A DNA stretch of 64,000 bases. It comes from an uncultured Actinomycetes bacterium. GTDB taxonomy: Bacteria > Actinomycetota > Thermoleophilia > Gaiellales > Gaiellaceae. This document shows, one piece after another, positions 3,335 through 62,310 of the stretch. A program made the translations under genes and the position numbers. The first letter of the stretch is position 1, and every line of letters begins with the position of its first letter. The notes under the pieces were generated by a model. The model did no database searches, was not told the origin of the DNA, and saw only the letters and a program-made list of their open reading frames with translations. The stretch is taken from NCBI GenBank assembly GCA_963733155.1, contig CAVTCK010000017.1, positions 9,590 through 73,589 on the forward strand, written 5' to 3'.

Positions 3335-3349
3335 GCGTATCTTGAGAGA

Positions 3350-3395
3350 CGGGAGCGACGGGACCCGAACCCACGACCTCCGGCGTGACAGGCCG
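3350..3395 (-). repeat. Remnant copy of the 3' 46 nt of tRNA-Asp (att-like scar)
   Basis: cgggagcgacgggacccgaacccacgacctccggcgtgacaggccg matches the anticodon-loop-to-3'-end part of the intact tRNA-Asp at 6829-6902 with 2 mismatches. No D-arm or acceptor 5' half lies upstream. Confidence 0.7.
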
Positions 3396-6644: not shown

Positions 6645-6828
6645 CGCGAGCGGTTGAAGCTAGGCGATCACCGCGAGACGAAGCCCTGCGTCACGCTTGA
6701 GCAGATTGCAGCGCCGAGTAGCGTTGGACAGGCGGGCCAGAGCTGAGGAACGTTCAGGGCACTGAGCTGCAACCGCAGAGTGCCCGGACGTCTGTGCCAC
6801 GTCGGGCGCAAGCCGCTTGAGCAAAGGA

Positions 6829-6902
<74 letters not shown>

Positions 6903-22638: not shown

Positions 22639-23130
22639 GTGATCCTGCGCGAGCCCGCTACCGCGCCCGACCCGCGGGTGCGGACGTACTGGCTGGTCGA
22701 GAACCTGATCGCCACCGGCGTCGTCGCGGGGCTCGTGATCGCGGGCACGGTCGTCGCGGCCCTGCTGGGCGCGAGCACGGTGGCGTGGCTCGTGGGCGGG
22801 CTCGGCGGGCTCCTCGTCGTCGTCCTCGTGGTGCTCTCGTTCGTCGGCGCCGGGCTCGACTACCGGCACTTCCGCTACGAGGTCGCCGACCTCGGGCTCG
22901 CCGTCGCGAGCGGCTGGCTCTGGCGCCGCTACCAGGTCGTGCCGCACGCCCGCGTGCAGACGGTGGACACGACCTCGAACCCGCTGATGCGCGCATTCGG
23001 CCTCGTCTCGGTCGAGGTGACGACCGCGTCGGCGGCCGGCGGCACCTCGATCCCCGGGCTGACTCCGGAGGTCGCCGATGGGCTCGTCGAGGAGCTCGCG
23101 CGCCGCGCCGGCTTGGAGGAGGGAACCTGA
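22639..23130 (+). CDS. YdbS-like membrane protein with a bacterial PH (bPH_2) domain
   Basis: Two TM helices (ATGVVAGLVIAGTVVAALLG...LLVVVLVVLSFVGAGL), then YRHFRYEVADLGLAVASGWLWRRYQVVPHARVQTVDTTSNPLMRAFGLVSVEVTTA. Start taken at GTG 22639. Confidence 0.7.
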   Translation: MILREPATAPDPRVRTYWLVENLIATGVVAGLVIAGTVVAALLGASTVAWLVGGLGGLLVVVLVVLSFVGAGLDYRHFRYEVADLGLAVASGWLWRRYQVVPHARVQTVDTTSNPLMRAFGLVSVEVTTASAAGGTSIPGLTPEVADGLVEELARRAGLEEGT

Positions 23131-23266
23131 GCGTCGCTCGCCTTCGGCTCGCTCCCGTGGGGGAAACCATGTTTCCCCCACGTGCCCCCTTCTTTGAGAC
23201 AGTGAGGGAACCTCCCGGGTCCCTCACACGCCCTCCCCACCCTCACAGGCCTGGTGGCCTGTGAGC
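23127..23266 (+). repeat. Family-A intercistronic repeat, copy 1 (three hairpins; open 45-codon frame ending in a GTGA overlap)
   Basis: About 85-90% identical by eye to 51731-51873. Hairpins at 23157-23181, 23202-23227 and 23242-23265. Bounded by TGAGCG on both sides (the stop at 23128-23130 and the start at 23261-23263). Confidence 0.85.
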
Positions 23267-34643: not shown

Positions 34644-35444
34644 TCACGACTCCTCCTCGCTCGCGGCGCGCGCGCCCAGATAGGCCTCGACCACGCGCGG
34701 ATCGGTCGCCACCTGCTCGAAGGAGCCCTCGGCGATCTTCTCGCCGTGGTCGAGGGCGACTACCCGGTCGGAGATCCCCTCGACGACGTGCATGTCGTGC
34801 TCGATCAGGAGGATCGTGTAGCCGCCTTCGGTCTCGCAGACGCCCGATCAGCTCCGTGATCTCGTGGGTCTCGACGGGGTTCATCCCGGCGGCCGGCTCG
34901 TCCAGGAGCAGCAAGCGCGGCGTCGTCCCCGTGGCCCGCGCGATCTCGAGGCGGCGGCGGTTGGCGTACGAGAGGCTGTAGGCGGGCTGATCCATCCGGT
35001 AGCCGATCAGCCGCTTGCCGAAGAAGGCGAGCCGCTCCTCGGCGAGGGCGTCCACCTCCCGCTCCTCGCGCCGGGCGGCGGGCGTTCGCAGCGCCGACTG
35101 CCAGAAGCGCGCCTTCGTGTTGCCCGTAGGTCGCCGCCTTGACGTTCTCCTTCACCGTCATGTTCAGGAAGAGGCGGAGTGTCTGGAACGTGCGCGCGAT
35201 CCCGAGCTTGGCGATCTTGTGCGGATCGAGCCCGACGATCCCCTGTCCCTCGAAGAGGATCTCGCCCTGGTCGGGCTCGTAGATCCCGGTGACGAGGTTG
35301 AAGAGCGTCGTCTTGCCGGCGCCGTTCGGCCCGATGACGCTGACGATCTCGCCCTCGCCGACGGTCAGGTCGAGGCGGTCGATGCAAACAAGCCCGCCGA
35401 ACGACTTGCTCACGCCGTCGCAGCTCGAGCAACGGGGTCGTCAT
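34644..35444 (-). pseudogene. livG: LivG-like ABC ATP-binding protein, at least 3 frameshifts
   Basis: MTTPLLELR / SKSFGGLVCIDRLDLTVGEGEIVSVIGPNGAGKTTLFNLVTG...IARTFQTLRLF / LSYANRRRLEIARATGTTPRLLLLDEPAAGMNP / TILLIEHDMHVV...DPRVVEAYLGARAASEEES-stop, in several frames. Confidence 0.8.
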
Positions 35445-47374: not shown

Positions 47375-47664
47375 CCGCCTCTCCGGCTTGTGCTCTTGTG
47401 GAGATGGGAGACCCGCCTCCCCAACCCGATGGCTTTAGAACTCGTCTCAAAATGAAGCCTTGTGCCGTCGGGCCGCGCTGCTCGCCCCGAGAGCGGCGTC
47501 CTCAGTCGCGCCCATACCGCTGCGGGTATGGGCGCTCCCTGCGTCCTTGTCTCGGAACGATCATCGCACCCCGACGGCGAAGCGTCATTCTGAAACGAGT
47601 TCTCAGCCTAACCCGACAATCCGCGCGCGTGGGAGACGGATCCGCGCCGGAAGCGTGCCGGTGA
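47371..47664 (+). other. 97-codon intercistronic ORF spanning the whole FAH-M24 gap, with GTGA overlaps at both ends; contains repeat B1
   Basis: GTG 47371 overlaps the FAH TGA (47372-47374). TGA 47662-47664 overlaps the GTG 47661 of the M24 gene. The frame is that of track ORF 47035-47664. Confidence 0.6.
47437..47603 (+). mobile_element. Family-B MITE-like repeat, copy 1 (22-nt imperfect terminal inverted repeats, central hairpin)
   Basis: TIRs agaactcgtctcaaaatgaagc / gcgtcattctgaaacgagttct (19/22 complementary). Hairpin cgcccatacc-gctgcg-ggtatgggcg at 47509-47534. Shares gcgtcctc.gtcgcgccc and gcgctccctgcgtccttg.ctcg with copy 2. Confidence 0.8.
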
Positions 47665-51153: not shown

Positions 51154-51734
51154 GCGACTACGCGGAATTCGCGCCCGACCCCCGGGTCCTCGTCGGCGGC
51201 TACATCGAGGCGGATCCCGCCTTCGCCCCGCGCCGGCCGGCCAGCGTGGACGAGGAGACGTTCAAGTCCGCGATGCGCTCGCTCGCCGCGGGCGTCGTCA
51301 TGGTGATCGCGCGCAAGGGCGACCGGCTCTGGGGCCTGACGATCAGCGCGTGCTGCTCGATCTCGGCCAACCCGCCCCGGGTGCTGATCTCGCTCGCCGA
51401 CGACGCGAGCTGCCGGGACGCGATCCTCGAGACGCGGCGCTTCGGCCTCAGCGTGCTCCGCGACGACCAGAAGCATCTGGCCGAGCTCGGCGCGGTGCCG
51501 GGCGCGCCCAAGTATGTGGACGTGTTCTGCGAGGACGCGGGCTCCGAGGAGCCGACGACGATGATCGCGGGCGCGCTCGTCCACCTCGAGTGCGCCGTCG
51601 AGCGCGTCTTCGGCGTGAGCGGCCACACGCTCCTGATCGGCGACGTTCAAGCAGTCGTCTCCTCGAGCCGCGAGGGCGGCCCGCTCCTCTACTTCGACCG
51701 CACCTTTCACGCGCTCGGAGACACCCTGCGATGA
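51150..51734 (+). CDS. Flavin reductase (FMN-binding split-barrel) family protein
   Basis: FKSAMRSLAAGVVMVIARKGDRLWGLTISACCSISANPPRVLISL...TLLIGDVQAVV...PLLYFDRTFHAL. GTG start in a GTGA overlap with the gntR-like gene. Confidence 0.8.
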   Translation: MSDYAEFAPDPRVLVGGYIEADPAFAPRRPASVDEETFKSAMRSLAAGVVMVIARKGDRLWGLTISACCSISANPPRVLISLADDASCRDAILETRRFGLSVLRDDQKHLAELGAVPGAPKYVDVFCEDAGSEEPTTMIAGALVHLECAVERVFGVSGHTLLIGDVQAVVSSSREGGPLLYFDRTFHALGDTLR

Positions 51735-51873
51735 GCGTCGCTCGCCTCCGGCTCGCTCCTGTGGGGGAAACCAGCGCTCCCCCACGGGCCCCCTTCTTTG
51801 AGACAGTGAGGGAACCTCCCGGTTCCCTCACACACCCTCCACACGCTCATAGGCCAAAGGTCGGCCTATGAGC
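51731..51873 (+). repeat. Family-A intercistronic repeat, copy 2 (46-codon ORF with ATGA overlaps at both ends; three hairpins)
   Basis: ORF MSVARLRLAPVGETSAPPRAPFFETVREPPGSLTHPPHAHRPKVGL, 51731-51871. Hairpins at 51761-51785, 51806-51831 and 51846-51872. Flanked by ATGAGCG on both sides. Confidence 0.85.
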
Positions 51874-54725: not shown

Positions 54726-55614
54726 GTGAGCCCGTCCGCTCCTCCCTTTGCGGTCTGCGAGTTCACGACGCTCAACGCGAGCTTCGAGGACGACCTTGCC
54801 GCGTATCGCGCGGCCGGCGCGAGCGGGATCGGCATCTGCGAGATCAAGCTCGAGGAGGGCCGCGAGGAAGAGCAGCTCGAAGCGTTCAGGGCGAGCGGCC
54901 TCGAGGCTACGAGCGCAGTCCCGGCGGTGCCGTCGATCCTGCCGCTTCCCCACCTTCCCGGTCCCGGAGGATCCGGCCGCGCGGATCGAGGCTCTCCGCG
55001 CGAGCGTCCGGCGGCTCGCGCCGTTCGAGCCGACCGCGCTCGTATGCCTGACCGGCCCGGCCGGGGCGCTCGGGAACGAGGACGCGCGGCGCCTCGTCGT
55101 CGCCGGGCTCCGAGCCGTCGCGGACGAGGCTGAGCGCGCAGGATTCCCCGTGGGGCTCGAGCCGATGAGCGCCCACTTCCGCGAGGACTGGACGATCGCG
55201 ACGACGCTCGACGAGGCGGCCGAGCTTCTGCGACGAGGCCGGCCACGAGAACGTCGGGATCCTCTTCGACACGTGGCATCTGTGGGACACCGCGGACCTG
55301 GCGGGGGCGATCCAGGGTCACGCGCCACAGGATCGTCGGCGTCCACGTGAACGACTGGCGTGAGGAGACGCGAGGCTGGTGCGATCGCGTTCTCCCGGGA
55401 GACGGTGTCGCGGACCTCCCGGCGATCCTCGGCGCGCTTGCGGACGCCGGCTGGAGCGGCGCCTACGAGCTCGAGGTCTTCTCCGGACGACGGGACGTTC
55501 GGATCGGCGTATCCCGATTCCCTCTGGAAGGAGGACGCCGGCGACCTCGCCCGCCGCGGACATGACGCGTTTCGCCAACTGTGGGAGCGGCCCGCCGTCG
55601 AAATGAAGGCGTGA
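54726..55614 (+). pseudogene. Sugar-phosphate isomerase/epimerase (xylose-isomerase-like TIM barrel), 4 frameshifts
   Basis: FAVCEFTTLNASFEDDLAAYRAAGASGIGICE / DPAARIEALRASVRRLAPF...GFPVGLEPMSAHF / DEAGHENVGILFDTWHLW / RIVGVHVNDW...LPGDGVADLPAILGALADAGWSGAYELEVFS / DGTFGSAYPDSLWKEDAGDLARRG, in alternating frames. Confidence 0.8.
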
Positions 55615-56618
55615 CTGAGCGCGTCTGCATCGTCGGGGGCGGCGTCATCGGCAGCCTCTATGCCGCCCATCTCGCCTCGGTCGCCGACGTGTGGGTGTTG
55701 ACGCGGCGGGCCGAGCACGCCCGCTCGCTCGAGGAGGACGGGCTCCGGGTCTCGGGGAAGCACGACTTCACTGCGCGCCTGCGGGCTACGTCCGACCCGG
55801 GTGAGCTGCCGGAGATCGATCTGGTCATCCTCGCGACGAAGGCGACCCAACTCGACGAGGCGGCGGCTGTCCTTGAGGGGCACGTTCCGAGAGCCACCGT
55901 GATGACCATCCAGAACGGCCTCGGCGCCGAGGAGATCGTGGGCCGCCACGGCGACTGGCCGATCGTCTCGGCCGTGACCTTCATGAGCGGTGACCGCCAC
56001 GCGGACACGCACGTCGAGTACGAGCTCGACACGCCCACGTGGTTGGGCCCGTACGCGGGGACCGGCACGCCGTTCGACCGGGTGCAGGAGATCGAGGGGC
56101 TTCTGCGCGCCGCGGGGCTCGAAGCGGAGGCGTTCCCGGACCTCCTGCCGGCGCAGTGGTCGAAGCTGATCTTCAACGCGACGGTGAACACGGTCTCGGC
56201 GCTCACCGGTCTCGGCCACGTGGAGCTCTTTGCCCGCGAGGAAGAGCCGACGGATCTCGGACGCCTCGTGCATGCGCTCATGGACGAGGGGATGCACGTG
56301 GCCGCGGCGGCGGGCGTCGAGCTGCACGAGGACCCGTGGGAGATGAACGTCCTCGCCGTGCAGAGGGGGGAGACGCAACAGAGCGACTATGCGCACGTGC
56401 CGTCCATGCTCGAGGACGTGCGTTCGTCGAGGCCGACCGAGGTCGACTTCATCACGGGCGCGCTCGTCCGCGAGGCCGAGCGGCTCGGCGTGGAGGTGCC
56501 GTTGCACACGGCGATGTACCGGTTGGTGAAGGGGAGAGAAGCGGCGTATCCGCCGGGAGAAGGCCGGGCTCCGGCGGTGGCCGGCGAAGTGAAAACGGTC
56601 GAGAGGAGTTCGGCATGA
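55611..56618 (+). CDS. Ketopantoate-reductase (PanE/ApbA) family oxidoreductase
   Basis: Intact. VCIVGGGVIGSLYAAHLA...LVILATKATQ...MTIQNGLG...QWSKLIFNATVNTVSALTG...SMLEDVRSSRPTEVDFITG. GTG in a GTGA overlap. Confidence 0.8.
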   Translation: MTERVCIVGGGVIGSLYAAHLASVADVWVLTRRAEHARSLEEDGLRVSGKHDFTARLRATSDPGELPEIDLVILATKATQLDEAAAVLEGHVPRATVMTIQNGLGAEEIVGRHGDWPIVSAVTFMSGDRHADTHVEYELDTPTWLGPYAGTGTPFDRVQEIEGLLRAAGLEAEAFPDLLPAQWSKLIFNATVNTVSALTGLGHVELFAREEEPTDLGRLVHALMDEGMHVAAAAGVELHEDPWEMNVLAVQRGETQQSDYAHVPSMLEDVRSSRPTEVDFITGALVREAERLGVEVPLHTAMYRLVKGREAAYPPGEGRAPAVAGEVKTVERSSA

Positions 56619-57848
56619 GAGGAACGACGAGATGGAGCTTGCTGCTCGCGCTCGTGCTGGCGTTCGGGCTCGCGGTTGCAGCCTGCGGCGGCGACGATGA
56701 CGACGACGGCGACGCGGCGGCGGACACGGCGACCACCGGGGAGGGCGAGGCGTCCGGCGAGCCGATCGTGATCGGCGCCGCGGTGGACCTGACGAATCAG
56801 ATGGCGCCCTTCGACGGGCCCGCCGTGACGGCGGCGCAGATCCAGGTGGACGCGATCAACGCAGGCAGGCGGCGTCGACGGCCGGCAGGTCGAGCTGCGC
56901 GTCGTCGATCACCAGCTTGACCCGGAGCGAACGAAGTCCGCGGCGATCGAGCTGATCGACGGCGGCGCCGAGGTCCTGCTCGTGACCTGCGACGTCGACT
57001 TCGCCACCCCGGCCGTACAGGAGGCGATCACGCGGGGAGTCCTCGCGGTGGCGCCCTGCATCGGGACCGATCAGATGGGCCCGGAGCGCTTCGGCGACGC
57101 GGGGAAGCTCGCGTTCAGCATCGGCAACGTCGCGCAGGACGAAGGCGCGGCCATGGCCGAGTTCGCGATCGAGCAGGGCTGGATGACCGCTGCGACGGTG
57201 ACCGACAACGTCATCGTCTACTTCCAGGACGTCGTCAAGGCGTTCGCGGCGCGGTACGAGGAGCTCGGCGGCGAGATCGCGGTCGAGGAGTCGTGGACGC
57301 AGGGCGACGGGACGATCCAGAACGTCGTCAGCTCCCTCGACGGCGCGAACGTCGACGTGATCGCCACGTCGACCGCGTTCGACGACATGCCCGCCCTCGT
57401 CGGCGGCCTCCGCAGCCTCGGCAACGAGACGCCGATCATCTGCGGCTGGTCGTGCGACGGCAACTACTGGCTGCCGGAGGGCACGAGCAACTTCTACACC
57501 GTGACCTATGCGTCGGTCTTCGGCGACGATCCGAGCACCGAGGTGCAGGCGTTGATCGACGAGATGACGGCTCAGGACCAGGCCCCCGGCACCGGCGGCT
57601 TCATCACCGGCGCCGCGGCCATCGACGCGATCGCGGCGGCGGTCGAGGAGACCGGCGGCACCGAGGGCGAGGCGCTCGCGGACGCGTTCGAGTCGTTCGA
57701 CGGCCTCGAGACGATCTCGGGGGACATCAGCTTCTCCGAGGAGTTCCACTCGGTCTTCGGTCGCGAGTACCGAGTGATGGAGGTGCAGAACAGCCAGCCC
57801 GCGTTCGTCGAGCTGAGGGCGGCCAGCTCGCCCGCCGAGATCGAGTGA
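56615..57848 (+). pseudogene. livK: LivK-like ABC substrate-binding lipoprotein, one frameshift near 56865
   Basis: Lipobox LAVAACGG and PIVIGAAVDLTNQMAPFDGPAVTAAQIQVDAINA (ORF 56039-56920), then GGVDGRQVELRVVDHQLDP...LLVTCDVDFATPAVQEA... (ORF 56982-57848 frame). Confidence 0.8.
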
Positions 57849-57855
57849 TCGCCGT

Positions 57856-58615
57856 GTGACCGATACGGCGCCGGAAGCCCGCCGCTGGCCCGGAGAGACT
57901 CTCCGGGCCAGCGGCATATCACGCTCCTTCGAAGGCGTGCACGCGCTCAACGGCGTGTACGCTCGAGCTGCATCGCCACGAGGTCGTCGGGCTGATCGGC
58001 CCGAACGGCGCCGGGAAGACGACGCTCGTCAACATCGTCACGGGCTTCGACTCCCCTACCGAGGGCGAGGTCGAGCTCGCGGGTGAGGCGATCACGTCGT
58101 GGGCGCCCCACCGCCGGGCGCGGGCCGGGCTGGCGCGGACGTACCAGCAGGGGAGGCTCTTCTCCGGCCTCTCGGCGCGCGAGAACGTCGAGGTGGCCGC
58201 GCTCGGCGTCGGTGCCTCGCCCCGCGAGGCGAGGCGGCGGGCCGGCGAGCTCCTCGCCCTGCTCGGGCTCGAGCGCCGCGCGGACTCCTCGGCGGCCGTC
58301 CTCCCGCACGGAGAGGAGCGAAAGCTCGGCGTCGCGCGCGCGTTGGCCACCGATCCTCGTTTCGTCCTCATGGACGAGCCGGCGGCGGGCCTGTCCGAGG
58401 CCGAGGTGCCGGACTTCGCAGAGGTCGTGCGGACGGTGCGCGAGGAGCGCGAGGCCGGCGTGCTCCTGATCGACCACAACGTCGCCCTCATCCTCGAGGT
58501 CTGCGACCGCATCCAGGTTCTCGACCAGGGCAGGACGCTCGCCGAGGGAACGCCGGCAGAGATTCGGCGCAACATCGACGTCACGGCCGCCTACCTCGGG
58601 AGCGCGCGTGCGCTA
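57856..58615 (+). pseudogene. livG: LivG-like ABC ATP-binding protein; a frameshift near 57957 and no in-frame stop before repeat B2
   Basis: ISRSFEGVHALNGV, frame change, then LELHRHEVVGLIGPNGAGKTTLVNIVTG...LPHGEERKLGVARALATDPRFVLMDEPAAGL...LLIDHNVALI...DVTAAYLGS. Confidence 0.8.
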
Positions 58616-58780
58616 AGAACCCGTTTCGAAATGAAGCCGGGTGTCGCCGGAACGCCCTGGACGGCGCGATTCTGCGTCCTCGGTCGCGCCCGTATTCTCG
58701 AATACGAGCGCTCCCTGCGTCCTTGCCTCGCACTCGCCCAGGACGCCCCGACGACAGCGCGTCATTCCAAAATGAGTTCT
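58616..58780 (+). mobile_element. Family-B MITE-like repeat, copy 2, between the livG-like and livF-like genes
   Basis: TIRs agaacccgtttcgaaatgaagc / gcgtcattccaaaatgagttct (17/22). Hairpin cgcccgtatt-ctcg-aatacgagcg at 58687-58710. Open in the livG frame throughout. The livF-like ATG (58772) lies inside the right TIR. Confidence 0.8.
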
Positions 58781-59493
58781 GACGCCATCCTCGAGCTCCG
58801 GGATCTCGAGCTCCGCTACGGCGGCGTCCCCGCGGTGCGCGGCCTCAGCCTGCGGCTCGAGCGCGGCGAGGTGGTGGGGCTCGTCGGCCCGAACGGAGCC
58901 GGGAAGACCTCGACGCTCCTGGCGATCATGGGCGTCGTCCAGCCGTACCGCGGGGAGATCCTGCACGCTCGGGCGGCCGCTCGCGGGCCTCGGGACGGAC
59001 GCGATCGTGCGCTCGGGAGTCGCGCTCGTGCCCGAGGGACGGCAGATCTTCCCGGAGCTCACGGTCGAGGAGAATCTCAGGCTGGGGCTGGTCGGCCGCC
59101 GCTCGCGGGACGGCGCCGAGGATGACCTCGCGCGCGTCGCCGCCCTCTTCCCCGTCGTCGGCGGGGACCGCCACCGCCCTGCGGGCGTGCTCTCCGGCGG
59201 GCAGCAGCAGCAGCTTGCGATCGCGCGGGCGCTCGTCGCCCGGCCCGACCTTCTCCTCCTCGACGAGCCCTCCCTCGGGCTTGCGCCGACGGTCGTCGAG
59301 GATGTCTTCGCCGCGCTGGCGGAGATCCGGGAGGGCGGCGTCACGATCCTGCTCGTCGAGCAGCGGGCGCAGTTCGCCGTCGGCTTCGCCGACCGCACCC
59401 ACGTGCTCGCGAACGGGCGAGCTCAGGCTCACGCTGACTCCGGCGGACGCGGACGACACCGCCCGCATCACCGCGGCCTACTTCGGATCGTGA
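58772..59493 (+). pseudogene. livF: LivF-like ABC ATP-binding protein, 2 frameshifts
   Basis: ILELRDLELRYGGVPAVRGLSLRLERGEVVGLVGPNGAGKTSTL / GVALVPEGRQIFPELTVEENL...LSGGQQQQLAIARALVARPDLLLLDEPSLGL...ILLVEQ / [25 protein letters not shown]. Confidence 0.8.
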
Positions 59494-59506
59494 CTGGAGG
59501 GCGGCC

Positions 59507-60392
59507 ATGAGTGCGCTCCAGACCCTGATCGACGCGGTCGCGCTCGGGTCGATCTACGCGCTCGTCGCCATGGGGATCGGCCTCGTCTTCGGCGTCATGC
59601 GGCTGATCAACTTCGCTCACGGGGAGCTGATCACTGCCGGGCGCCTACGCTCTCGCCCTCACGAACCACTTGCCGCTCGCGGTGAGCCTCGTCGCCTGCT
59701 TCGGCGTCGTGGTCGCGCTCGCGCTCGCGATGGACGTGACCTACCGGCCGCTGCGGACGACGACGCCGACCACGATGCTGGTGACGACGTTCGCCGTCTC
59801 GTTCCTCCTCCAGGCCGTGGCGCTCCTCGCGTTCGGCGCGCGGGGGAAAACGTCGGCGTGCTCCCCGAGCTGAACCGGGCCGTGTCGATCGGCGACCTTC
59901 GCATCCGGTGGGTGACGCTCGTCTCCATCGCGGTGGGCGGCGTGCTCCTCGGAGCGACGGCCGCCGTCCTGCTACGCGGACGGATATCGGGCTCCAGATG
60001 CGCGCGGCGGCGATGAACGCGCAAACGGCGCGGCTGCTCGGCGTGCGCGCCTCGACGGTCATCCGTTTCGCGTTCGTCCTTGCCGGGATCTCGTGGCCGC
60101 CTCGGCGACCGTCCTGCTCACGGTCCAGCGGCCCCTCGTCACACCGACCTACGGCTTCCAGCTCGTCATCCCGGCGCTCGTGGGGGTGGTGGTCGGGGGC
60201 ATGGACCGGCTCGTGAGCGCGACGCTCGGCGGCTTCGCGATCGGCTTCGCGGCCGCCGTGCTCGGCGACGTCCTCCCCGCCGACGGGCGCGTCTTCCTGG
60301 ACACCGCGCTCTTCCTGCTCGTCATCCTCGTCCTGCTCGCGCGCCCGAGCGGGCTCTTCACCCGCTCGCGCGCGGCCTGGGAGCGGCTGTGA
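59507..60392 (+). pseudogene. livH: LivH-like ABC permease, 4 frameshifts
   Basis: [45 protein letters not shown] / [13 protein letters not shown]...[25 protein letters not shown] / [18 protein letters not shown] / [19 protein letters not shown] / LLTVQRPLVTPTYGFQLVIPALVGVVVGGMD...LLARPSGLF. Confidence 0.8.
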
Positions 60393-61390
60393 GGCGCGTC
60401 GCCGAAGGATCGCAGCTACTCGCGCCGGTCCTGCTGCTGGCCCTCGTCGGGGTGGTCGGGAGCTTCACGTCGCGGTCGGTGCAGTTCCAGTTCCGCTTTG
60501 CGCTCGTGATGGCGACGATCGTGATCGCGCTCTACGTCTTCGTGGGGAACTCGGGGGTCGTCTCCTTCGGGCACATCAGCTTCGTGGCCGTCGGCGCCTT
60601 CGCAGCAGGCCTGACGACCGTGCCGGAGGCGCTCAAGCTCTCGCTCAGCCCCGATCTCTTCCCGGTCATCGCGAGCGCCGAGGTGGGGAACGCCGTCTCG
60701 CTTCTCCTCGCCGCAGCCGTAGGCGGCCTCTACGCCCTGCTCGTCGGCGGGCCGCTCATGCGGCTGTCCGGGCTCTCGCGCGGGCATCGCCACCTTCGCC
60801 GTGCTCGTGATTACGAACAACGTCCTCCGGAACTGGGAGGCGATCGGCCCGGGGGCCAGGACGCTCTCGCTGGTCCCGGAGACGACCGGCTTCCTCCAGG
60901 GGACGGTGGGTGTGATCGCGGTCGCCGTGCTGGCCTTCCTCTACCAGCGCAGCCGCTTCGGCCGGGTGCTGCGCGCCTCGAGCGAGGACACCGCCGCCGC
61001 CGAAGGAGCGGGAATCGACATCTACCGGCAGCGGTTGCTCGCCTTCGCGCTCTCGGCGCGCTGGCCGGATTCGCCGGCGGCCTGCTCGTCCACCTCCTCG
61101 GCAGCATCACGACGCAGCAGGTGTACCTCGACCTCACCTTCATCACCCTCGCCATGCTCGTGATCGGCGGCGTCCGCAGCCTCTGGGGGGCGGTCGTGGG
61201 CGCGCTGCTCGTGAGCGGCGTCAACTCCTTGCTGCTCACGGCCGAGAACGGGCTCGATTTTGGGGTGACCGAGCTCAACGTCCCCACGGGGACGCGCCTG
61301 GTTACGCTGGGCGTCGTCATGACGCTGATCCTCCTCTTCCGGCCGCGCGGCCTCACGGGTGGCCGCGAGGTGACGCTGAGGAGGTCGTGA
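60389..61390 (+). pseudogene. livM: LivM-like ABC permease with a compensating frameshift pair (about 60780 and 61060); the ORF stays open but about 93 codons are read out of frame
   Basis: Track ORF 60080-61390 is continuous. However, its middle (SRGHRHLRRARDYEQRPP...) is nonsense, while ORF 60801-61163 carries the real sequence (VITNNVLRNWEAIGPGARTLSLVPETTGF...RVLRASSEDTAAAEGAGIDIYRQRLLAFALS). Confidence 0.75.
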
Positions 61391-62310
61391 CGCGGGTTTG
61401 CGTCGTCGGGTGCGGGGCCGTCGGCTCCCTCTTCGCGGCGTCTCTCGCGCAGCTCGACGACGTCGAGGTCTGGGCGTACGACCTCGATGCCGAGCACGTC
61501 CGCGAGATCGGCGAACGCGGACTCCGCCTCTCGGGGGCCGGCGAGCTCGTCGGCAGGCTGCACGCGACGACCGACGCCTCGGGCCTGCCTCCCTGCGAGC
61601 TCGGAATCGTGGCGACGAAGAGCATGCACACGGACGCCGCCGTGGCAGCTGCCGCCCACGCTCTCGCGGAGGGCGCCGTCTGCTCCGTCCAGAACGGGCT
61701 CGGGAACGAGGAGGCGATCGCCGCCCACGTGCCCCGCGTGATCCGGGGCACGACCTTCCCGGCCGGCCACATTGTCGAGCCGGGCCACGTCCACTGGGAC
61801 GTCAAGGGCGACACGACGATCGGCCCCTTCGAGCCGAGCCCGGCCTCGATGGAGGAGGTCGAGCGGCTCGCGGACTCCTGCACACGGGCTGGGCTGCCGA
61901 CGGAGGCGGTCCCCGACGCGCGCGGCCCGCAGTGGCGGAAGGTCATCTTCAATGCGGCGACGAACCCGGTTGGAGCCCTCACGGGGCTGACGCACGGCCG
62001 GGTCTGCGAGGACGCCGGGCTGCGCCGGCTCGTCAGCGGCCTCGTGGACGAGGGCAAGGCCGTGGCTGCGGCGCAGAAGATCGTGCTCGACGCCGACCCC
62101 GAGGAGCTGATCGACTACGCCGCCCGTCCCGACGTCGCCTACGAGCACAAGGCGAGCATGCTCCAGGACGTCGAGGCTCGCCGGCAGACGGAGATCGACT
62201 ACCTGAACGGCGGCATCGCCCGCTTCGGCCGTGACCACGGCGTCGAGACTCCGCTGAACGAGGCGGTGACCGCGCTGATCAAGGGACTGGAGGCATCGTG
62301 GGAGCGATAA
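61387..62310 (+). CDS. Ketopantoate-reductase (PanE/ApbA) family oxidoreductase, second paralogue
   Basis: Intact 307 aa. VCVVGCGAVGSLFAASLA...GIVATKSMHT...SVQNGLGNEE...QWRKVIFNAATNPVGALTG...SMLQDVEARRQTEIDYLNG. GTGA overlap with the livM-like gene. Confidence 0.8.
   Translation: MTRVCVVGCGAVGSLFAASLAQLDDVEVWAYDLDAEHVREIGERGLRLSGAGELVGRLHATTDASGLPPCELGIVATKSMHTDAAVAAAAHALAEGAVCSVQNGLGNEEAIAAHVPRVIRGTTFPAGHIVEPGHVHWDVKGDTTIGPFEPSPASMEEVERLADSCTRAGLPTEAVPDARGPQWRKVIFNAATNPVGALTGLTHGRVCEDAGLRRLVSGLVDEGKAVAAAQKIVLDADPEELIDYAARPDVAYEHKASMLQDVEARRQTEIDYLNGGIARFGRDHGVETPLNEAVTALIKGLEASWER

Follow-up and report, generated by a model that had tools for sequence, protein, structure and literature searches.

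The Correia/NEMIS elements of Neisseria, the ERIC/IRU and YPAL elements of enterobacteria and the RUP elements of pneumococcus are non-coding sequences of 100–200 bp that possess terminal inverted repeats (TIRs) and a target-site duplication (TSD) and occur in many dispersed copies (PMC2229807). Their transcripts are predicted to form one long stem-loop, they lie mostly next to genes and within operons, and occasionally they give rise to apparent in-frame fusions. Insertion at a C|TNA|G target with duplication of the TNA is documented in another setting, the NuwaII group of the IS5-related PIF/Harbinger-ISL2EU-Spy (PHIS) superfamily (PMC4482050). Here, we describe a repeat, referred to as family B, from a 64,000-nt stretch of DNA of an uncultured Gaiellaceae bacterium (contig CAVTCK010000017.1; the whole stretch is called the window below). 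It resembles the first group of elements in all the respects listed above. One of its two copies in the window, copy 2, separates a livG-like from a livF-like gene, and the following features delimit the two copies.

58617..58779, plus strand: core of family-B copy 2, 163 nt, GAAC...GTTC, defined by a profile search and by the empty orthologous sites L118, L119 and L121–L125
58617..58638, plus strand: left TIR of copy 2
58758..58779, plus strand: right TIR of copy 2
47438..47602, plus strand: core of family-B copy 1, 165 nt, intergenic, flanked by TTA (47435–47437) and TCA (47603–47605)

An earlier note, made from the letters of the window, had proposed that the element is repeated, and a second copy is indeed present at 47437–47603: blastn aligns it with 58616–58780 at 73% identity across 168 nt (E = 1.6e-19). 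Each copy aligns end to end with its own reverse complement, and all four terminal arms fit the 22-nt consensus AGAACYCRTYTYRRAATGAMGC, for which 0.01 matches are expected by chance. A profile search started from the two window copies revealed at least 78 full-length copies, whose GAAC...GTTC cores measure 161–165 nt (mode 163). The family has a polarity, one orientation scoring about 100 bits above the other in the profile. In an alignment of 72 copies, the TIRs span some 22 nt and their columns are near-invariant. No reading frame is maintained across the family, the frame used by livG being open in 20 of 68 copies and the other frames in 1–38 of 68, and the possibility of a coding element was rejected for this reason.

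A scan for the arm pattern, in which each species was represented by one genome, gave more than 117 loci in about 60 assemblies. Among the matches listed, the carriers are nearly all metagenome-assembled genomes (MAGs) labelled Gaiellales, Gaiellaceae, Gaiella, Thermoleophilia or unclassified Actinomycetota, with up to nine loci per MAG, and the copies are scattered singly, with no cassette arrays. The closest relatives of the LivF protein (94–95%) are likewise proteins from Gaiellaceae MAGs. With the Rfam 15 covariance models, the window returned only tRNAs at gathering score, and nothing overlapped the element in four loci searched at E ≤ 1. We found no published description of such elements in Gaiella, and we conclude that family B is a previously undescribed family that is abundant in Gaiellales.

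Internally deleted derivatives of 29–89 bp that keep both TIRs and TNA-like flanks are also present (loci L008, L009, L022, L023, L026, L033, L043, L049, L084, L095, L112 and L113). At two further loci, L051 (4596–6154) and L093 (2943–4733), family-B copies are interrupted by transposase genes, of IS256 type in one case and IS30 type in the other. These long 'elements' were considered as a parent element and rejected, the inserted genes being unrelated.

The flanks of the copies give the logo C-TNA-element-TNA-G, which defines a palindromic C|TNA|G target and a 3-nt TNA TSD. Left and right trinucleotides are matched, with 13 cases of TTA/TTA and 11 of TAA/TAA, compared with none of TTA/TAA and two of TAA/TTA (Fisher p = 2e-5). 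Orthologous operons, found by a metagenome scan with the LivG protein (87–94% amino acid identity), allowed the livG–livF junction to be compared with that in relatives: the element is missing from all seven orthologous junctions (L118, L119 and L121–L125), each of which has a single TGA or TAG. Following removal of the element and one TSD copy, the window is colinear with L118 at 90% nucleotide identity (blastn). The matched TNA duplications and the empty orthologous sites establish that the element is mobile. It has TIRs and a TSD, it is small and non-coding, it occurs in many dispersed copies and its orthologous sites are empty; family B is a bacterial MITE (miniature inverted-repeat element, a non-autonomous transposon).

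The features at the livG–livF junction are as follows.

57856..58616, plus strand: livG-like ABC ATPase gene; a single-base insertion at ~57958 interrupts the frame as sequenced
58608..58610, plus strand: what is left of the ancestral livF start, now GTG but ATG in relatives (CATGCCTGA); parted from livF by the insertion
58611..58613, plus strand: CGC, compared with two bases (CC, AC or CT) in six relatives; one base is the private single-base insertion by which livG comes into frame with the element and livF
58614..58616, plus strand: left TSD copy, TAA, most likely the true livG stop; a TNA TSD is found family-wide, and relatives stop with TGA or TAG here
58772..58774, plus strand: predicted replacement livF start, ATG, in the right TIR; derived from ACG, with C in 69 of 72 copies
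58772..59491, plus strand: livF-like ABC ATPase gene; single-base insertions at ~58970 and ~59418 interrupt the frame as sequenced
58780..58782, plus strand: right TSD copy, TGA; its GA opens the livF codon GAC, and it is the frame-1 stop of an open reading frame (ORF) spanning the element

The orthologous junctions read CATGCCTGA, in which the TGA stop of livG overlaps the ATG start of livF; that of L123, for example, is GGC CGG GCG CAT GCC TGA CGC GCT GCT CGA G. LivG of the relatives ends ...AAYLGRAHA*, and livF read from the ATG of CATGCCTGA gives MPDALLEIRGLELRY. The window has GCG CGT GCGC TAA, the 163-nt core, and TGA CGC CAT CCT CGA G. This comparison shows that the element inserted into CC|TGA|CG, at a TGA that served as the livG stop and also as part of codons 2–3 of livF (ATG CCT GAC...). 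The TGA was duplicated on insertion, and its left copy, now TAA 58614–58616, is still a stop. The old livF start, now GTG 58608, has been cut off from its gene.

A substitute for the lost start appears to have come from the element itself. The earlier note had assigned to livF an ATG at 58772, within the right TIR, where copy 1 has ACG, and this was confirmed, the ATG being the product of a derived C-to-T change. It is located 8 nt in from the right end (AAAATGAGTTC|TGA), in a column that holds C (ACG) in 69 of the 72 copies; the window copy has the only uncompensated T, giving the sole G.U cell. Apart from it, no ATG, GTG or TTG stands in frame from the element to the conserved ILELRDLELRYGG. 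The new ATG is 8 nt from the T of the duplication and the old one 5 nt, so that the frame is kept and the protein would begin MSS-DAILEL instead of MP-DAILEL; close LivF relatives all begin MP[DES]x[ML]LEI. As the only plausible livF start, ATG 58772 is well supported by these comparisons, and it is presumably the codon in use. At another locus, L050 (1094–1270), the ATG-creating change is present on both arms with the pair kept, and the ATG is among the candidate starts of a long outward ORF.

Once the extra base in 58611–58613 is removed, the former ribosome-binding region (GGGAG, 58598–58602) and GTG 58608 open a 57-codon ORF, which overlaps the livG stop, crosses the element and finishes at TGA 58780–58782, where its stop and the new ATG overlap as ATGAGTTCTGA. 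Speculatively, translation of this ORF from the old livF signals could relay translational coupling from livG to livF. The frame concerned is open in only 27 of 68 copies and is not a property of the family.

Insertion at stop codons extends well beyond this operon. Using a heuristic based on G+C content at third codon positions (GC3), and not a gene finder, to call the strands and ORFs of the flanking genes, we identified 52 long GC3-rich ORFs that are read towards an element end. Thirty-nine of these reach the end, and 35 of the 39 stop at the junction, where one-third would be expected by chance (p = 3e-13). The junction stops are TAA or TGA at position -3, supplied by the duplication, or TAG at position -2, supplied by the duplication together with the first G of the element. 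Genes downstream mostly start 6–24 nt past the element, and many copies thus sit within an operon, right at the stop codon of the upstream gene. Contexts are more often convergent than divergent (17 versus 5, p = 0.017), and in tandem contexts both orientations of the element occur (11 versus 10). At L075, L111, L015, L080, L037 and L070, two convergent genes both end exactly at the junctions of a single element, one of them with TAG and the other, on the opposite strand, with TAA. These data suggest a simple explanation of how insertions are tolerated. In a genome of ~70% G+C, C|TNA|G sites are often stop codons, and the insertions that survive would be the ones that hit a stop codon, since a stop is regenerated on both sides by the duplication together with the element's terminal G and C.

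A further distinctive property of family B is its fold, which is more stable on the minus strand.

58686..58711, minus strand: apical ('central') hairpin, perfect on this strand, GCGCUCGUAUUC-GAGA-GAAUACGGGCGC
58674..58681, plus strand: conserved motif GCGTCCTC, first direct copy, in the internal loop; near-invariant or invariant in 72 copies and unpaired in the fold
58717..58724, plus strand: conserved motif GCGTCCTT, second direct copy; conserved columns, unpaired in the fold

The earlier note had pointed to compensatory changes in the central hairpin as a sign of selection on structure. Comparison of copy 1 (cgcccatacc/ggtatgggcg) with copy 2 (cgcccgtatt/aatacgagcg, 58687–58696/58701–58710) bears out three double changes and one C.A mismatch, the latter being a G.U pair on the complementary strand. 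RNAalifold applied to the MAFFT alignment recovered only a partial hairpin, owing to the placement of gaps, and was replaced by a 56-pair full-length hairpin pooled from the individual predicted folds, whose pairs were counted on the 72-copy alignment. Across these 56 pairs and 72 copies, 85.1% of the cells are paired. Both sides have changed in 33 of the 56 pairs, a value that none of 500 shuffles reached, compared with 22.6 in shuffled data. Cells with double changes number 265, compared with 83 after shuffling and 25–55 when partners were slid, and the covariation score is 0.196 compared with 0.03–0.06 in the slid controls. Pairs of the apical hairpin illustrate the changes, with the states GC 50/CG 18; CG 27/AU 21/GC 13; AU 47/GC 24; and GC 47/UA 13/CG 7. 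The covariation is upheld across 72 copies and over the whole fold-back, but the strand favoured by selection on structure is opposite to the one that the earlier note had examined.

The preference for the complementary strand is pronounced. In the plus-strand orientation of the window, the non-Watson–Crick cells comprise 276 A:C or C:A and 60 G:T or T:G, and the bias persists when counted by column (33 versus 10, p = 6e-4). In 71 of 72 copies it is the complementary strand that folds better, the means being −104 and −84 kcal/mol, a difference of ~20 kcal/mol; when composition is controlled for, the mean z is −9.2 for the complementary strand versus −6.0 for the other, and the complementary value is the lower in 69 of 72 copies. 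For copy 2, the minus strand forms a near-perfect hairpin (−107.7 kcal/mol, z −8.7), compared with −67.8 kcal/mol and z −1.9 for the plus strand. GCGTCCT, which reads AGGACGC on the favoured strand, is present as twin direct copies that lie opposite one another in the internal loop; these are the best-conserved positions of the element, above even the TIRs.

The mismatches also carry information on where the bias originated. States found in at most two copies are strand-symmetric (33 versus 27), whereas those found in three or more are skewed (22 versus 6, p = 0.004). This suggests, in so far as the sparse sampling of one genome per species permits, that the strand bias arose in the propagating lineages and not in resident copies. 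The leading candidates for what maintains the fold are a single-stranded step in propagation and a better tolerance of insertions that fold compactly. A bolder proposal is that the fold-back is selected on one strand in the propagating lineages together with its AGGACGC loop motifs, which would imply a strand-specific single-stranded step, with a protein bound to folded single-stranded DNA or RNA, in an element that in other respects resembles an ordinary DDE cut-and-paste MITE. A separate, local proposal is that copy 2 relays coupling from livG to livF. We hold such readings to be possible but rather unlikely.

Overall, we consider it probable that copy 2 is a MITE mobilised by an IS5/PHIS-type transposase onto the livG stop codon, that the livF start was rescued by a mutation in the TIR, that the apparent LivG–LivF fusion discussed below is artefactual and that the fold is maintained in source lineages. 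According to this scheme, a transposase supplied in trans would make 3-nt staggered cuts in the palindromic C|TNA|G, as is characteristic of DDE enzymes related to IS5 (PIF/Harbinger type). ISfinder describes bacterial IS5-family subgroups that make TNA duplications. The MITE inserted at CC|TGA|CG, where the TNA duplication kept a stop for livG and livF lost its start; the C-to-T change in the right TIR made the in-frame ATG 58772. The livG–element–livF open frame comes from one extra base before TAA, and the hairpin of ~80 bp is kept by compensatory change in the source lineages of the element, most strongly on the strand antisense to livGF.

Several points weigh against this reading. We infer the transposase family from the target site: 1.25 Mb of sequence from the loci yielded no autonomous partner with family-B TIRs, and the element gave no matches in a scan of viral contigs or, by blastn, in plasmids. 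Nor is there a Shine–Dalgarno-like motif upstream of ATG 58772. A second assembly with a filled livG–livF site was not found, the best LivF relatives, 94–95% identical, all starting MPxx, and the extra base, though probably a sequencing error, may be a real mutation. The structure tested for covariation was derived from the predicted folds of the same sequences. Finally, the strand asymmetry is without explanation under plain double-strand cut-and-paste. It has no counterpart in orientation relative to the flanking genes, for which there is no bias, and an apparent trend of orientation with local GC skew disappeared once the element itself was excluded (38/78).

In the course of the search for a partner, no ORF was found to recur beside the 57 unpaired TIRs, their interiors sharing none. 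Distant TIR pairs in the fetched loci were likewise rejected as an autonomous element, as ordinary genes lie between them.

Of the alternatives, the one that survives best, improbable as we think it, is that family B is mainly a structured RNA acting at the level of the host, as a cis-regulatory element, a stabiliser or processing site or a small RNA, and that pairing is kept for the function of the transcript. Strong covariation over the entire hairpin, one clearly favoured strand with G.U-type intermediates, two near-invariant unpaired motifs conserved above the TIRs and the enrichment at gene 3′ ends, seen in the excess of convergent contexts, are all compatible with such a role, and in other bacterial MITEs the transcripts affect neighbouring mRNAs (PMC2229807). 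Against it, the matched TNA duplications and empty orthologous sites indicate mobility. In tandem contexts, moreover, the favoured strand is the mRNA strand in only half of the cases, and it is antisense in both window copies. Simple scans around both window copies revealed no promoter or terminator, and the element has no Rfam match. The symmetry of the rare mismatches and the skew of the shared ones place the constraint in the source lineages.

A second alternative, which we regard as very unlikely, starts from the fused livG-like and livF-like frames of the earlier note. It takes copy 2 as an in-frame insertion, like a Rickettsia palindromic element (RPE), that truly fuses LivG and LivF into a two-ATPase polypeptide with a 55-residue linker, its frame under selection. 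As sequenced, the livG frame (coordinate mod 3 = 2) is indeed free of stops, running from ...AAYLGSARAL through RTRFEMKP...TTARHSK into MSSDAILELRDL in phase with livF; copy 1 is open in that relative frame as well; and RPE, ERIC and YPAL elements provide examples of in-frame MITE fusions (PMC2229807). The agreement does not, however, extend beyond the window: only 20 of 68 copies have the frame open, compared with 27–38 of 68 for other frames, and an open frame across the element is not beyond chance; moreover, the junction stops the ORF in 35 of the 39 cases in which an ORF reaches the element end. In view of these counts, classification as an RPE-like in-frame coding insertion was rejected.

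The fusion itself hinges on a single base. When the window, with the element and one TSD copy removed, is aligned with L118, there are four gaps in livG–livF, and all are single-base insertions in the window.

~57958: window insertion compared with L118; breaks livG
58611–58613: window insertion compared with L118, CGC for two bases in six relatives; directly before TAA
~58970: window insertion compared with L118; breaks livF
~59418: window insertion compared with L118; breaks livF

The extra base in 58611–58613, which six relatives do not have, brings livG into the frame of the element and of livF; had it been absent, livG would end ...AAYLGSARA* at TAA 58614–58616. This base is one of ~12 private single-base insertions, accompanied by two deletions, over 6.6 kb of the window; they lie outside homopolymers, and L118 and L119 agree with one another against the window. 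By this measure, the window sequence is either error-rich or from a decaying genome, and the apparent fusion most likely stems from a stray extra base in error-rich sequence. Should the extra bases instead be genuine, both genes carry frameshifts, and a fusion protein could not be made. A functional LivG–LivF fusion is thus not supported whether the extra bases are real or erroneous.

Over the broader interval 54900–61800, comparison with two independent relatives gives the window a private single-base indel roughly every 500 nt; most are insertions outside homopolymers, and many genes are broken. Insertions are found at, for example, 55227, 55322, 55486, 56863, 57958, 58970, 59418, 59641 and 60779, and deletions at 59846 and 61055. 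A 388-residue protein from another MAG (P0112), annotated in the database as a 'LivG-LivF fusion', has a junction that looks frameshifted; apparent fusions recur in draft assemblies.

Movement through a single-stranded DNA hairpin, as in REP/RAYT, IS200/IS605-derived or integron attC systems, in place of double-strand DDE transposition, would suit the strand-specific fold, the origin of the asymmetry in propagating lineages and stems conserved more in structure than in sequence, but it is the least credible of the alternatives, since those systems are without TSDs or long TIRs while family B has a matched 3-nt TSD, 22-nt TIRs and a palindromic C|TNA|G target, its ends do not, by inspection, fit the attC core sites RYYYAAC/GTTRRRY, its copies are single and dispersed with no cassette arrays among the matches listed, and TIR-only derivatives of 29–89 bp persist. 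Assignment to attC sites was rejected on account of the misfit of the ends and the TSD, and assignment to REP/RAYT or IS200/IS605-type palindromic elements on account of the TSD and the TIRs.

Other repeats are present in the window. A 124-nt sequence, 'family A', occurs at 23128–23251 and 51732–51855; its two copies are 90% identical, form a chain of short G+C-rich hairpins and each begin directly at a TGA. The 3′ half of a tRNA-Asp gene is repeated 3.5 kb from the gene as a 48-nt copy of 96% identity (3348–3395 versus 6827–6874), which an integrated element may have left behind as a trace of its attachment site. A segment at 35237–35351 on the minus strand is 75% complementary over 115 nt to 57979–58093; it belongs to a paralogous liv-type ABC ATPase gene, which indicates a second branched-chain amino-acid transporter cluster in the window.

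The joint reading of copy 2 as a MITE on the livG stop codon has several implications. Family B, for which C|TNA|G is a clear target rule, adds a repeat family to Gaiellales, a major lineage of soil bacteria for which nearly all knowledge comes from uncultured organisms. The livG–livF junction would offer a clean natural case of insertion damage and repair, in which a lost start codon was made good by one point mutation in the end of the element. The locus is also a warning for annotation, as such elements in error-rich assemblies yield false gene fusions. The strand-specific covarying fold and its twin loop motifs may, if the interpretation is true, point to a single-stranded step in the propagation of MITEs.

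Family B nevertheless differs from the Correia/NEMIS, ERIC/IRU, YPAL and RUP elements in important respects. It has no sequence similarity to them and is very G+C-rich, not A+T-rich, and its target is C|TNA|G with a 3-nt duplication instead of TA. Unlike them, it has junctions that act as stop codons in 35 of the 39 cases in which a flanking gene reaches an element end, and a bias of ~20 kcal/mol towards one strand in 71 of 72 copies, and no partner insertion sequence is known. In its target, it is closer to the Tourist-like MITEs, the PHIS (NuwaII) elements and bacterial IS5 (PMC4482050), with which it shares the 3-nt TNA (TWA) duplication and the C before and the G after it; in both cases the elements are short, carry TIRs and depend on mobilisation in trans. 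NuwaII and PIF, unlike family B, belong to eukaryotes, and the link to them is by target site, no transposase gene having been found.

The arrangement of copy 2 has a parallel of a different kind in the mycobacterial interspersed repetitive units (MIRUs) of Mycobacterium tuberculosis, which are reportedly intercistronic repeats with small ORFs that overlap the stop and start codons of the flanking operon genes. Copy 2 likewise lies at an operon junction, and after removal of the extra base its 57-codon ORF overlaps the livG stop and the new ATG. MIRUs are, however, said to be tandem direct repeats that, unlike family B, have no TIRs, hairpin or TSD, and the spanning frame is open here in 27 of 68 copies. 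RPEs, finally, are palindromic repeats that, as in family B, can be found inside reading frames. They have a conserved open frame and lie in-frame within genes, whereas family B keeps no frame and its junctions terminate the flanking genes.

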